From NCBI GenBank assembly GCA_041615815.1, contig JBFJCP010000018.1, positions 1-64,000 of the forward strand: DNA of 64,000 nt. Direction: 5' to 3'. Every line of letters starts with the position of its first letter. Position 1 is the first letter of the stretch. The notes below the pieces were generated by a model. That model was not told where the DNA came from, did not search any database, and saw nothing but the letters and a program-made list of their open reading frames with translations. A program made the position numbers and the translations under genes. This document shows, piece after piece, positions 30,509 to 64,000 of the stretch. This stretch comes from Gemmatimonadales bacterium (GTDB lineage: Bacteria; Gemmatimonadota; Gemmatimonadetes; Gemmatimonadales; GWC2-71-9).

Positions 30509-32758
30509 CTAGGAGACCACGTCCTGTTGGCAGCGCATGATGGCGCGCATCCGCGCGGCCAAGGCTCGGGCGCGGAACGGCTTGGTGAGAAAGTCGTCAG
30601 CCCCCATCTCGAAAACCCGAACCTCGTTGTCCTCGTCGCCTTTGGCGGTGAGGACCAGGACGGGAATGTCCGCTGTCCGTGGGCGGCTGCGCAGCCCCGA
30701 GAGGACCCCATAGCCGTCGAGACCGGGCAGATTGAGGTCCAGGACAATGATATCGGGGGCATGGCGGTCCACCTTCTCCATGGCCTCGGCCCCGTCTTTT
30801 GCCTCGATGATCTCGAATCCCTCCCGCTCGAGGAGATCGGTGACGACTCGGCGGAACTGATCCTCATCGTCGACCAACAAGACCTTGTATGTCGGGTGTT
30901 GGGAAGGCACCGGGTCGAGCAGTTCGAAATCCATCGCGCTCGTCAAAAAGGACGGTAGCGCATCGACTTGCTTTACTAGGTCCGCGCTCCGCTTGCGCCC
31001 CCGGCGTCGCGCCGCCGCCGCCTTGGGCTCTGGTTTCGTCGTGTCGAGCGTCCGAGCGCCGTCTTCAACAGGGATGTCGACGACGCGAAGCAACTCGTCT
31101 ATGGTAGACTCACCGTTCAGCACGTGCTGCACGCCGCTATCCCACAGGGTACGCATGCCTCCCTCTCGCGCCGCCTCGGCGATCCGATCAGCGGTTTGCG
31201 CACTGGCAATGCGCCGCTCGACTTCCGGCGTGACCTTCAGGACTTCCAAGATGGCGTATCGGCCACGGTAGCCGGTCATGGCACAATCCTCGCACCCCAC
31301 AGCCCGGTACAGCGGCGTGTCGGCGGGAATCCACCGGTGGAGCTTGGCGGGGATCTCTTCGACCCAGGGCTCCTTACATACCGGACAGAGTCGACGCATG
31401 AGCCGCTGCGCTATCACCCCCCGCAGTGCGCTGGCGATCTTGTAGCTCTCCACCCCGATATCCACCAGCCGCGTCACCGCGTTCGGCGCATCGTTGGTGT
31501 GCAGAGTGGACAGGACTAAATGCCCTGTCAGTGATGCCTGGACCGCGATCTGGCCCGTTTCCCGGTCTCGAATCTCCCCCACGAGGACCACGTCCGGATC
31601 CTGTCGCAGAATCGATCGCAAGGCCGAGGCAAACGTCAGCCCCGCTTTCTCATGCACCTGCACCTGGACGATTCCCTGCATCCGGTATTCCACCGGATCT
31701 TCGACCGTCACGATGTTCACGCCCTCGCTTTGGATGTGTCGAATAGCCGAGTACAGCGTCGTCGTCTTCCCCGATCCTGTGGGCCCCGTCACGAGAATGA
31801 CGCCGTCGCGGTTGTCCAGAAGGTCTCGAATGGCGGCACCTTCATACTCGGGAAGCCCGAGGGCGTCGAGGGAGAGCACGGTCTTCGAGGAATCCAACAC
31901 TCGCACCACCACCTTCTCACCGAGGGCGGCAGGCAGAGTCGAGACGCGGAGGTCGACGGGAATCCCGTTCACCGCCACCCGGGCCCGGCCGTCCTGGGGC
32001 CGGAGGCGGTCCGCGATGTCCATGCCGGACATGATCTTGATCCTGGAAATCGCCGGCAGTCCCACACCCCGCGGCAAGGTCATGGCTTGCCGCAGCACGC
32101 CGTCCACCCGGTATCGGACGGCGACCCCGCGTTGTTCGGGCTCGATGTGGATGTCACTGGCTGCGCCGGAGATGCCTTGCGAAAGGATAAGGTCAACGAG
32201 CCGTACCACGGGGCGCTCCGACGCCTGCTCGGCCGACACGATCAACTCGTCGAGCGTATCGTCCTCGACTTGCATGATCTGAGCATTGGAGCTCATACCT
32301 TCGAGCAGCTGCTCGATGACGTTTTCGGGTTCGACTTCCTCCTGATAGACCCGGTCCAATGCCTCGGCAATGCACCGTGGGCTCGCCAGGAACGACCGGA
32401 CCGCGCGCCCAGTGGCGAAGCTCAACTTGGTCTCGCAGTCGAAATCGAACGGATTGGCCGTCGCGATTTCGAGATGGGAATCACTGAGCCGAAGCGGAAC
32501 GATCTGGAAGCGACGCGCCACTACCTCGGGCACCAGCTCCCGCGCGAGCGCCTGACTGTGTGCGAGGTCGGCGCGCTCGATATGAAACCGATTCGAGAGC
32601 AAGCTCATGATCTCGTCGTCGGTCACGACACCACTGACCACGGCCGCTTCCCAGAGCGAGTCGGTCTCCAACGCGGATTCCCGAAGCGCAGTGAGTTTGT
32701 CCGTTCCGACGAGGTCGGCAAGGGTCTTACTGAGCCATTCGTCCCGAAAATCTGTCAT
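30509..32758 (-). CDS. GspE/PilB-family secretion ATPase fused to a C-terminal response-regulator receiver domain
   Basis: ASDIHIEP, PQDGR, Walker A GPTGSGKTT, TVEDPVE, LRQDPD..LVGEIRD, GHLVLSTLHTN, CxxC..CxxC; REC VLLVDDE..IVLDLNLPGLDG..LTA..FLTKPF. Confidence 0.95.
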   Translation of the reverse strand: MTDFRDEWLSKTLADLVGTDKLTALRESALETDSLWEAAVVSGVVTDDEIMSLLSNRFHIERADLAHSQALARELVPEVVARRFQIVPLRLSDSHLEIATANPFDFDCETKLSFATGRAVRSFLASPRCIAEALDRVYQEEVEPENVIEQLLEGMSSNAQIMQVEDDTLDELIVSAEQASERPVVRLVDLILSQGISGAASDIHIEPEQRGVAVRYRVDGVLRQAMTLPRGVGLPAISRIKIMSGMDIADRLRPQDGRARVAVNGIPVDLRVSTLPAALGEKVVVRVLDSSKTVLSLDALGLPEYEGAAIRDLLDNRDGVILVTGPTGSGKTTTLYSAIRHIQSEGVNIVTVEDPVEYRMQGIVQVQVHEKAGLTFASALRSILRQDPDVVLVGEIRDRETGQIAVQASLTGHLVLSTLHTNDAPNAVTRLVDIGVESYKIASALRGVIAQRLMRRLCPVCKEPWVEEIPAKLHRWIPADTPLYRAVGCEDCAMTGYRGRYAILEVLKVTPEVERRIASAQTADRIAEAAREGGMRTLWDSGVQHVLNGESTIDELLRVVDIPVEDGARTLDTTKPEPKAAAARRRGRKRSADLVKQVDALPSFLTSAMDFELLDPVPSQHPTYKVLLVDDEDQFRRVVTDLLEREGFEIIEAKDGAEAMEKVDRHAPDIIVLDLNLPGLDGYGVLSGLRSRPRTADIPVLVLTAKGDEDNEVRVFEMGADDFLTKPFRARALAARMRAIMRCQQDVVS

Positions 32759-61574: not shown

Positions 61575-61604
61575 AGAAGAAGAAAGCGCCGGCTCCCCGG
61601 CGCT
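61575..61604 (-). terminator. Intrinsic terminator of the second GspE-like gene
   Basis: Minus strand AGCGCCGG-GGAG-CCGGCGCT followed by TTCTTCTTCT. Confidence 0.75.
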
Positions 61605-61649
61605 CGGTGCATGAGAAAACGGTAGTCCCTGTGGCCTGTGCTCTCGACG

Positions 61650-64000
61650 CTAGGCCTTCGCTCGCCGGTCCGATGTGTCGCGGCGTTCGATTCCACTCCG
61701 GCGGCTGACACCGCGACGCCGCTCGCCACGGCGACGATCCCGTGCCGCTCGCCGCTCGAAGGCCACTGGCTCGGCCAAACGGCGGCGATCGAGGTAGCGG
61801 CGATCTTCGCCGGCTCGCCGATCCCGTCCCGCCCGCCGATCGGACCGTACACCCCAGGACGACAATTTGCGCCGTTGAGCGACGCGCCGCTCTCGCTGCT
61901 GTGTGTTCGTCGTGCCGTTCATACCGTCGTTCCGTTGGTCGGAAGGAGGTGTGGGCGGCGCCACGTGCTGTCGCGCGTGCCCGGCGAGACCGTTGGCGCC
62001 GTTTGCATGCCCGTTCACTGGCGCACCATGCCCGTTCACTGGCTTGGTCGTACCACCGGCGGCGGACGGTCCCGCATGCCCGTTCGCTGGAGGAGCGTAC
62101 CCACTGGCGGGTGGGACGTGCCCATTGGCCGGAGGGGCATGCCCATTGGCAGGGGCAGCGTGACCGTTGATGTGGCCACCGTTCGGTGCCGGATGCCCAT
62201 TGACCGGTTTCATTTGGCTCTTGATGCCATTTGGCCCTGCAGCGGGGGGCGGGTGGCTCGCACCGTTCACGATGGGGCCGCCATTGGGATGCCCATTGGG
62301 GTGGGCCACACCATTCGCTTTCGGTGACCACGAAGATGCCCCCTTGGACGGTGCTGTAGCGCCGTTCACGTCGGCACTCGGTCCCGCGGGTGCGGGCGGT
62401 CGCGTGTCGCTCGGCGGGGGCGAGGTGCTCTGGGAGTGCCAATCCGGCGGCGCGTGGTACGGCGTGGTTGGCGCCGCTGGCGGGGTGTTGCCTCCCGCTC
62501 CTTGCTGCGGCCATGCCGGACCGCTACTGGGTGCACCCTGATACCCGGTGCCGGCGGCAACGGGTTGCTGAACCGGCTGTCGCGGCTGCGCGGGCGGTTG
62601 GGGCGGGGGTGCCGCCGCCTGTGGCGCCGGCTGGTACGTGTAATTCACACTCGGGCCGTGGGGTCCCCACGGACTTGGCGTCTGGAAGGGAGAGGGCGCC
62701 TGGTACGGAGCGCTAAACCCGCTGGGACCCCAGGCCGGAGGTGTATGATAGACCGGGCCCGTCCCCACCGGCGGCCAGACCTGGGGAGCGTACTGGAACA
62801 CGCCCGGATAGTGTCCCGGTAGTGGTGTTGGTTGATAGAAGACGGCGTGGCTGTACTGCGCCGCCACTTGCGGTGGCTGGTACATCTGCGGCATCACCGC
62901 TTGGCCGTACGCGTACGGATACATCTGTGGGGGCATCGGCGGGCCACCATGCTGCCCCTCGACGACGACCACCATCACTTTGACGTCCGGCGGCACCTGA
63001 ATGTTCTTGACACCGTGACCGGAGTCGAGGCGTACCTCCATTGTCCCGGGATCGTGTCCCGAGGGTCCAATGTGAATGTTGCCGTGGCCGGGACCGTCCT
63101 GCGGCTGTCGCGGCGGTTCTTCCGGCGGCTGCTGGAACCGGCCCCCCTGGTATCCACTGGGCGGCTGCTGTGGTTCGCGCGGCGGGTGGTACGCCGCCGC
63201 GGAAGGATCTGTCGATCCTGCCGGCCCGTGGACATATCCCGATGGCTGTTGATGGGGCGGTGCCGGCTGTTGGGACTGCGCCGGTTGCTCGTATTGCGGC
63301 GCCGGCTGCTGGTATGGTGGTGCCGGCGGTTGGTACGGCGGCGCCGGCTGGTCTTGTGGCGCGTGGTGCTGGTACTCGGGCGCGGGCTGCTGATACGGCG
63401 GCACCGGCTCGCGATACTCGGGAACCGGCTGCTCGTACGGCTCGGGCTGCTCGTAGCGCTCGGGCTCGGGTGCCGGCTCGGGCGCCTGGTAGTGCACGGC
63501 CGGTGCCGGCTCGACGGGTTCGGCCGGAAATGCGACGGGGCTCGGGGCGGCGAGTGGTGGTGACGTGGCCGGCTCGGCAGCCGATGGAGCTGCCATTTCC
63601 AGCGGCGCGTCCACAACGCGGAGCAACTCGTCGATCGTCGACTCACCGCGGAGGACGTGCGCCAAGCCACTCTCCCACAGAGAGTGCATTCCGCCCCGCC
63701 GCGCCGCCTGGGCGATCTTGTCCACCGTCTCTCCGGTCGCGATGAGGTGTTCCAATTCGGGTGTAACCGTCAACACCTCGAGGATTGCGAACCGGCCTCG
63801 GTAGCCGGTCATCGCGCACTTGGGACACCCCACGGCACGGTAGAGCGGTGTGTCGGTCTGAATCCACTGCTGAAGCTTGGGCGGTGCGGGTTCGAGCGCC
63901 ACGTCTTTGCAGGCGGGACAGAGTTTACGCATCAAGCGTTGCGCCAGCACACCTCGCACCGCGGTCGCGATCTTGTAGCTCTCGATGCCGATGTCCATAA
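61650..64000 (-). CDS. GspE/PilB-family ATPase paralog (5' part outside the window) with ~650-aa low-complexity C-terminal extension
   Basis: DIG.ESYKIA.A.RGV.AQRLMR.LCP.C...GC..C.MTGYRGR..ILEVL...GESTIDELLRVVD, closely matching 30509..32758; frame stays open to TAG at 61650, followed by a terminator. Confidence 0.85.
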   Translation of the reverse strand, partial: MDIGIESYKIATAVRGVLAQRLMRKLCPACKDVALEPAPPKLQQWIQTDTPLYRAVGCPKCAMTGYRGRFAILEVLTVTPELEHLIATGETVDKIAQAARRGGMHSLWESGLAHVLRGESTIDELLRVVDAPLEMAAPSAAEPATSPPLAAPSPVAFPAEPVEPAPAVHYQAPEPAPEPERYEQPEPYEQPVPEYREPVPPYQQPAPEYQHHAPQDQPAPPYQPPAPPYQQPAPQYEQPAQSQQPAPPHQQPSGYVHGPAGSTDPSAAAYHPPREPQQPPSGYQGGRFQQPPEEPPRQPQDGPGHGNIHIGPSGHDPGTMEVRLDSGHGVKNIQVPPDVKVMVVVVEGQHGGPPMPPQMYPYAYGQAVMPQMYQPPQVAAQYSHAVFYQPTPLPGHYPGVFQYAPQVWPPVGTGPVYHTPPAWGPSGFSAPYQAPSPFQTPSPWGPHGPSVNYTYQPAPQAAAPPPQPPAQPRQPVQQPVAAGTGYQGAPSSGPAWPQQGAGGNTPPAAPTTPYHAPPDWHSQSTSPPPSDTRPPAPAGPSADVNGATAPSKGASSWSPKANGVAHPNGHPNGGPIVNGASHPPPAAGPNGIKSQMKPVNGHPAPNGGHINGHAAPANGHAPPANGHVPPASGYAPPANGHAGPSAAGGTTKPVNGHGAPVNGHANGANGLAGHARQHVAPPTPPSDQRNDGMNGTTNTQQRERRVAQRRKLSSWGVRSDRRAGRDRRAGEDRRYLDRRRLAEPVAFERRAARDRRRGERRRGVSRRSGIERRDTSDRRAKA

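Follow-up and report, generated by a model that had tools for sequence, protein, structure and literature searches.

A PilB/GspE-type ATPase with a long, mostly disordered tail of conserved blocks in a Gemmatimonadales genus

The 64,000-nucleotide stretch of DNA analysed here (the window, G000:C18:1-64000, where G000 denotes the source genome, G001 and G002 its two congeners and C a contig) forms the beginning of contig JBFJCP010000018.1 of a Gemmatimonadales bacterium (assembly GCA_041615815.1). At its far end lies a minus-strand frame (window 61650-63998 (-)) that is stop-free from the core of a PilB/GspE-type ATPase down to a stop at 61650. The full gene, C18:65477-61650 (-), starts with an ATG at 65477, beyond the window end, and encodes 1275 amino acids (aa) in a translation that exactly matches a protein-database sequence. 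The initial annotation correctly described a frame that stays open for about 650 codons past the core (652 aa counted after RVVD) before reaching a stop plus terminator; a terminator-like hairpin lies at 61605-61584. Its order of blocks also holds, with P/Q/Y/E residues at aa 624-798, a beta segment at 799-840, Y/P/Q/G at 841-920, an NG-rich stretch at 921-1192 and an Arg-rich end at 1193-1275. The parts of the gene are listed below, together with the ratio of nonsynonymous to synonymous differences per site (pN/pS) obtained from pairwise codon counts among three species, for which pS is mostly 0.5-0.8.

Up to C18:65477 (-), upstream of the window: N-terminal extension (aa 1-110), MshEN_C-like domain (aa 124-206) and T2SSE domain (aa 241-620).
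63609-64000 (-): C-terminal part of the PilB/GspE-type core (aa ~493-623, with a CxxC...CxxC zinc motif), assigned by motifs, Pfam and fold match.
63084-63608 (-): linker 1 (aa 624-798), acidic P/Q/E/Y segment with 21/60-bp tandem repeats, 175 aa here; pN/pS 0.64-0.76.
62958-63083 (-): beta island (aa 799-840), 42 aa, 83-88% identical across three species; pN/pS 0.10-0.22.
62868-62957 (-): linker 2 (aa 841-870), uncharged P/Q/Y, variable.
62718-62867 (-): Y/P/G island (aa 871-920), 50 aa, uncharged, 10-11 aromatics, 74-88% identical; pN/pS 0.11-0.23.
61902-62717 (-): linker 3 (aa 921-1192), NG repeats of conserved composition and variable sequence and length (219-272 aa); pN/pS 0.39-0.64.
61650-61901 (-): terminal [DE]RR module (aa 1193-1275 plus stop), ten [DE]RR units; pN/pS 0.29-0.38.
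61584-61605 (-): terminator-like hairpin beyond the stop, where the adjoining gene is convergent (1 found against 1.3 expected by chance).

Pfam places MshEN at aa 124-206 and T2SSE at aa 241-620 (E 9e-137), and the tail has no Pfam match at E up to 10. Walker A, the Asp box, Walker B, the His box and four Cys (two CxxC pairs) are all intact in the full gene, which dispels the concern that the part beyond the window might hold degenerate Walker motifs. The T2SSE domain, the complete set of catalytic motifs and the tetra-Cys site make the protein a member of the PilB/GspE superfamily. In an AlphaFold2 model of a 1142-aa orthologue, used as a stand-in for the 1275-aa protein, the core folds, and its best match by TM-score is Geobacter PilB (5TSG/5TSH; 48% identity, root-mean-square deviation (rmsd) 2.6-3.0). 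Hexamerisation and ATP hydrolysis would be expected from what is known of the family. In all tailed proteins the N-terminal helical subdomain of MshEN is replaced by a low-complexity stretch, of which the first 35 residues are conserved; an amphipathic N-terminal motif is likewise conserved, though weak (rank 64 of 1265 windows).

The tail is present in all three genomes of this genus (G000, G001 and G002) and in a fourth database protein with a full length of 1172 aa. Tail lengths are 504, 531, 555 and 652 aa across the four proteins, with identical block order. The initial annotation had named a misjoin, in which a normal ATPase is fused to an unrelated frame, as a possible source of error. 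The source assembly is indeed fragmented, but the core-tail junction is bridged by contigs from two other studies at 98-100% identity, none of which covers the whole gene by itself, the identical fusion recurs in three species and the fourth protein, and amino acids are conserved despite saturated synonymous sites. An assembly artefact or neutral read-through is thus refuted by the orthologues and retains only a vanishingly small probability.

A protein search covering 41 related genomes, with stricter settings on the first look, matched the tail only in G000, G001 and G002, in open frames of 1288-1330 aa, and a protein-database search for the tail (8000 candidates scored) returned three clusters, namely the protein itself, the G002 type (9 members) and the fourth type (4 members). 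One member of the fourth cluster, P0004, lacks 16 residues of [DE]RR repeats, either as a natural variant or through assembly repeat collapse. A 1094-aa PilB frame in another genome (G037) was considered as a further tail and rejected, being PilB and PilT fused across an N gap. The beta island was found in 3/3 genus genomes; across the order, 2 of 301 genomes matched, its own and one with a 25-position match (E 8e-4) that was uninspected and taken as chance. The Y/P/G island matched 3 of 401 phylum genomes, all from this genus. A profile search of 1.84 billion representatives with the islands gave one true match and three short repeat-type matches judged to be chance, no shorter stand-alone form was seen among 22 candidates, and none of 181 pattern matches in metagenome contigs was confirmed. 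In an Atlas search the beta island had no usable match and the RR module had only leads below 0.9 (two Gemmatimonadota hypothetical clusters). A crude screen covered 1629 frames that are likely to be coding and measure 400 aa or more; among these, the tailed ATPase had the most low-hydrophobicity windows (542 vs 329 for the runner-up).

Selection differs among the parts of the protein. The pN/pS ratio is 0.14-0.16 in the ATPase core, 0.10-0.23 in the islands, 0.29-0.38 in the Arg module (aa 1193-1272) and 0.39-1.0 in the linkers, where values are rough, with unreliable alignments and synonymous sites near saturation. The ATPase core and the MshEN_C-like domain are under strong purifying selection by these codon counts; the beta, Y/P/G and [DE]RR modules are also under purifying selection, and the linkers drift. 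Because the islands are conserved as protein, the tail must be translated and selected. We hold the architecture, ancestry and selection of the tailed ATPase with high confidence.

The initial annotation regarded the tail as disordered, and this is mostly so: in the model of the 1142-aa orthologue, the predicted local distance difference test score (pLDDT) of the tail is below 50, the exceptions being the beta island (58-72) and a pair of short terminal helices. Low complexity does not extend over the whole tail, which contains three conserved islands. Modelled alone from three sequences, the beta island is predicted to form a three-stranded meander with a mean pLDDT of 75, plus a hydrophobic fourth segment. 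The best fold-search match has Z 4.6 (rmsd 3.2, 50 aligned) and no Foldseek match has E <0.001, from which a new fold does not follow; a CsrA-like swapped dimer was considered because of a resemblance, with no CsrA-like chain among the matches listed, and a homodimer prediction for aa 785-925 scored 0.01, which is evidence neither way. The Y/P/G island has no predicted fold and is a candidate docking motif. Charge is laid out in order along the tail, with an acidic linker 1, an uncharged aromatic middle and a basic end.

Several compositional descriptions needed adjustment. A repeat block exists where NGH repeats had been reported, but the conserved unit is NG (14-23 copies per tail), with only 0-8 copies of NGH; the long P/Q/Y/E block measures 175 aa here but only 64-110 aa in the orthologues, so that linker 1 ranges over 64-175 aa; and the end is Arg-rich as described, but Tyr accounts for just 28 of the 652 residues (4%), at 17-28 Tyr per tail. 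Q/N-rich prion-like domains are expected to contain some 30 Q/N or more per 80 residues. Per 80 residues of tail, Q+N peaks at 17-20 and Pro at 24-28, and by this criterion the composition is that of Pro-rich disorder, not of a Q/N prion domain, so the label prion-like is not supported as it stood.

G000 encodes three paralogues with a receiver (REC) domain at the C-terminus, besides a canonical PilB truncated where its contig stops and three PilT-like genes. One of the three paralogues lies in the window.

30509-32758 (-): degenerate MshEN/ATPase/REC paralogue of ancestral architecture, core 71% identical to the tailed core.

The other two are at G000:C19:64276-66600 and G000:C23:74232-76358, and the phospho-acceptor looks intact in all three. 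This degenerate-MshEN/ATPase/REC family is very large in Gemmatimonadota (3059 matches at E 1e-200 among 8000 candidates), and the tailed core is 59-73% identical to it. Among the best 120 of the 3059 matches, 117 carry Response_reg and the remaining 3 are tailed proteins. In a quick maximum-likelihood tree of 50 cores with a midpoint root, from which four partial or off-target rows and one G002 paralogue with an internal stop were excluded, the four tailed proteins fall into a single clade (SH-aLRT 100), whose sisters are two REC duplicates at genus level (support 92, 94) and which stands apart from canonical PilB. The tailed clade has a stem branch of 0.19 and nests in a 35-row clade (support 95), whose other 31 rows carry REC in frame (29) or in a shifted frame (2). 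Judged from this phylogeny and the database matches, the tailed protein is a descendant of the Gemmatimonadota ATPase-REC family, and since its clade nests among REC-bearing rows, the parsimonious reading is that REC was lost and replaced by the tail in this genus. Deeper relatives end in REC-GAF, so the C-terminal position is a slot for signal input. The initial statement that GspE/PilB proteins normally end shortly after the core is wrong for this lineage, whose family ends in REC or REC-GAF; cyanobacterial PilB1 is likewise described in PMC7690835 as having a C-terminal Hfq-binding domain.

The possibility that the tail is a frameshifted or antisense remnant of REC was rejected: compared in six frames with the C-termini of five paralogues, it showed nothing beyond low-complexity noise. 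The RLG motif of MshEN binds c-di-GMP (cyclic di-GMP; PMC5013675); in its form RLGxx(LVI)(LVI)xxG...LxxxLxxQ it has 0 copies in 4/4 tailed proteins and 2 in the canonical PilB of the genome, and its full form occurs in none of the REC-bearing rows. The paralogue sister to the tailed clade, L075:871-1560 (-) (G001:C31), retains REC and has a Y/P/G-rich insertion in the linker before it, which possibly parallels how a tail begins to grow. An MshEN/ATPase/REC-like/GAF architecture occurs in another family of the order (L085:1066-3807, L086:1093-3840), and REC-family genes L025, L026 and L076 (G019, G007 and G002) appear to be broken, either by a frameshift ahead of REC or by a stop inside the gene, perhaps through assembly errors.

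The terminal module is 82 aa long with a net charge of +17 to +20, and Arg makes up 93-97% of its basic residues. Its ten [DE]RR units occupy identical positions in 4/4 proteins, a count reached in 0/10000 residue shuffles. A free-standing mini-protein of ~80 aa, 50-53% identical to the module and sharing its AQRRKL lead-in, is encoded in 3/3 genus genomes.

L070:340-585 (-) (G000:C24), L069:1498-1758 and L071:1495-1731: free [DE]RR mini-genes, one per genus genome.

The single mini-protein compared with NCBIfam had no match there. Matches to small proteins or domains of this kind occur in 24 of 150 family genomes, although low complexity inflates such scores. As these matches reach beyond the genus and the fusion does not, it is likelier that the tail module was recruited from a mini-gene than the reverse. 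The mini-gene of several other genera stands among Ser/Thr kinase, FHA-domain and YdjM genes (L048, L051, L052, L053, L056, L058, L060, L068). Three frames of the source genome (L041:2584-3015, L042:2147-3184 and L043:2575-3075, on C11, C2 and C26) combine 7-8 [DE]RR units with a C-terminal CPxC...CxxC zinc-ribbon-like domain, and L073 encodes a small protein of similar type. A frame at G000:C12 near 50001 (+) holds ten perfect DRR/REDRR heptad-like repeats, a repeat type different from that of the tail module.

The nearest analogy for this module comes from Caulobacter. According to PMC7382256, the CleD peptide binds a c-di-GMP dimer via DRR and [RK]RxxD 11 residues apart and folds upon binding, with D-R-R as the guanine-reading unit in a structure solved by nuclear magnetic resonance. 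The signature of the Cle family is given as a tandem [YF]xGP[DE][RK]R (PMC5677366), and motifs of this type need experimental proof according to PMC10333796. The source genome has 14 GGDEF matches, PilZ has no match in 3/3 genus genomes (91-96% complete), and Gemmatimonas aurantiaca is placed in PMC5013675 among organisms whose sole known receptor is MshEN. This genomic context fits c-di-GMP signalling. The [DE]RR module partly matches the CleD peptide, with DRR-x10-RRxxD in 4/4 tails, and may be a c-di-GMP-binding module.

The tailed gene is an orphan. Its synteny is kept in three species, with labels assigned by sequence inspection: a divergent ECF-sigma-like cluster lies upstream and a convergent hydrolase/peptidase run downstream, and hairpins likewise follow the stop in both congeners.

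C18:65624-65609 (-): sigma54-type motif upstream of the tailed gene.

This TGGC-N7-TTGCW motif, which contains GG-N10-GC, stands 129-132 nt upstream of the gene in 3/3 species. G000, which encodes RpoN, has 10 strict sites including this one; a strict motif is absent within 400 nt upstream of four other PilB-family genes. We infer that the tailed gene is its own sigma54-dependent transcription unit. Each of the 3/3 genomes, at 91-96% completeness, has one secretin, which in G000 closes a pilM-led cluster, and PilC adjoins canonical PilB in both congeners; G000 has only a weak PilC-like match, its pilB locus being cut by a contig end. Because of the single secretin, the pilM-led cluster and PilC beside canonical PilB, the likely client of the tailed motor is the single type IVa pilus machine, and the initial suggestion of a type II secretion system (T2SS) motor is unlikely.

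Comparison with known systems helps to delimit what is new. PilB/GspE structures (Geobacter PilB 5TSG, 5TSH and 5ZFR; Vibrio GspE 4PHT) share with the tailed protein the MshEN_C-like and T2SSE domains, all motifs, the four-Cys zinc site and 47-48% identity over the core. Unlike them, it has no MshEN RLG motif, carries a ~110-aa low-complexity N-terminus and a tail of 500-650 aa, is encoded by an orphan gene with its own sigma54-type motif and falls below both equivalog cut-offs. It resembles the Gemmatimonadota degenerate-MshEN/ATPase/REC family, which has three paralogues in the genome, in its core and in its position inside the tree, but REC and the helical subdomain (DEW motif) are swapped for disordered extensions with conserved islands. 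Supplementary Table 4 of Wang et al. 2016 contains REC-MshEN-T2SSE (Gmet_3473) and MshEN-T2SSE-cNMPbind, and MshEN-T2SSE-REC does not appear in that table. The Arg-rich region and CSP peptides of Cle proteins, as presented in PMC5677366 and PMC7382256, are likewise C-terminal, unfolded, short and portable, with DRR followed by RRxxD; the [DE]RR module, a candidate binder, differs in having no [YF]xGP, a spacer of 10 instead of 11, ten units instead of two and a long tether to a motor. PilB1 is another pilus extension ATPase with a C-terminal addition peculiar to its lineage (PMC7690835); the tail differs from that addition in being long, mostly disordered and multi-module. Type IV pilus genes have been noted in the phylum Gemmatimonadota (PMC10581226). 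A literature search by title and abstract, with subscription journals mostly outside its coverage, found no paper on the tailed architecture or the Gemmatimonadota ATPase-REC family. The initial claim of an undescribed system holds for the architecture, a real, mostly disordered, ordered-block tail that is kept across orthologues on a hexameric-type ATPase.

We propose, with a probability of about 0.4, that the protein is an accessory type IVa pilus extension motor in which a tethered c-di-GMP or docking input replaces phospho-control. Expressed under sigma54 control, the tailed protein would hexamerise and serve the single type IVa pilus machine of the cell, either by itself or together with its paralogues. 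The [DE]RR module would pass from an unfolded state to one folded around c-di-GMP dimers, in which Asp and Arg recognise guanines the way they do in CleD of Caulobacter, while the linkers would act as tethers and the beta and Y/P/G islands as docking or self-association elements. Binding of c-di-GMP would neutralise the basic end and change its docking target, be it the ring, the acidic linker, the platform or a polar partner. The tailed motor would thus be engaged or released by c-di-GMP, whereas the paralogues would respond to phosphorylation.

It should be noted that a number of observations weigh against this proposal. The protein is not a canonical type IVa PilB, since it scores under the cut-off, branches in a separate clade and occupies an orphan locus away from the pilus genes; it reaches 542 bits against the PilB model TIGR02538 (cut-off 676; canonical PilB of a congener 784) and 563 bits against the GspE model TIGR02533 (cut-off 630). 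The CSP-like pattern in 4/4 tails is DRR-x10-RRxxD, one spacer residue shorter than the DRR-x11-[RK]RxxD of CleD, in whose loop single deletions cut binding 2- to 11-fold (PMC7382256, Table 1). No tail contains the Cle signature [YF]xGP[DE][RK]R, 21% of shuffles that preserve the triplets yield a CSP-like pattern, and the three free-standing copies have not retained RRxxD at the CSP-like position. Among mini-protein neighbours, 49 frames scanned of 75 selected (27 loci) included 0 GGDEF, EAL or pilus genes. Finally, the tree behind the ancestry is a quick version with no formal clade test, the linker ratios are rough, and all tail comparisons rest on four sequences.

In the interpretation of the initial annotation, six tails per ring would provide multivalent aromatic and Arg stickers, and the motor may be a self-localising scaffold that phase-separates or forms a polar hub. 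The pervasive disorder, the large excess of Arg over Lys, the graded charge layout, the NG composition kept despite sequence drift and, weakly, the amphipathic N-terminal motif as a possible membrane anchor would all suit such a protein. Yet Q/N stays at or below 20 per 80 while Pro reaches 28, each tail has only 17-28 Tyr, and the islands are fixed residue by residue, beyond what generic stickers need; moreover, an obligatory Asp or Glu precedes each Arg pair, and the Arg block exists as a free protein. Tyr and Arg cluster in islands whose positions are conserved, a pattern that fits the binding of a specific ligand or partner better than generic stickers. We consider this scaffold unlikely. 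In a version that keeps the ligand, each hexamer would bear six multivalent [DE]RR c-di-GMP sponges on long tethers, plus aromatic and beta-strand docking islands, and c-di-GMP would mask or unmask the Arg stickers and thereby switch the clustering of motors at the base of the pilus. In the PilZ-less Gemmatimonadota the free mini-proteins would then constitute the chief c-di-GMP receptor or buffer family, so far overlooked, and their module would have been caught while being grafted onto an enzyme in place of the receiver. We regard this combination as decidedly improbable.

Alternatively, the basic end may bind a polyanion (RNA, incoming DNA, polyphosphate or anionic lipid) or an acidic partner, with the motor base serving as a hub in the style of PilB1-Hfq. 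A net charge of +17 to +20 within 82 residues, the precedent in PMC7690835 and the location of several mini-proteins beside Ser/Thr kinase, FHA and YdjM genes, not c-di-GMP genes, are consistent with this. A plain polycation, however, needs no 10-13 conserved acidic residues before Arg pairs, and D-R-R reads guanine in the CleD structure (PMC7382256); we think this, too, is unlikely. The orphan location, the separate canonical PilB with adjoining PilC in both congeners, the scores below both equivalog cut-offs, the stem branch of 0.19 and the replaced helical subdomain could instead indicate that the tailed protein has stopped driving pili and either modulates the other PilB paralogues within hetero-hexamers or has been repurposed as an ATPase for a new client, the tail serving as its targeting arm. 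This is rather improbable given a core and MshEN_C-like domain that are under strong purifying selection and 59-73% identical to the REC-bearing family, and no other machine lacking a motor was found. The condensate, polyanion and non-motor explanations overlap and could be combined.

Returning to the accessory motor with a c-di-GMP input, its general reach is limited by its occurrence in one uncultured genus with four sequences. Within that genus, a large disordered region with new conserved islands arose, and one genome offers a natural input-swap series on one machine: alongside a canonical MshEN motor it has three motors fused to a receiver and the one in which the tail took the receiver's place. 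Control of pilus and secretion motors is known through N-terminal MshEN domains or separate regulators. A tethered c-di-GMP input, if true, would be an undescribed control mode for such a motor, and a phylum listed as without PilZ receptors would gain a new c-di-GMP receptor family.

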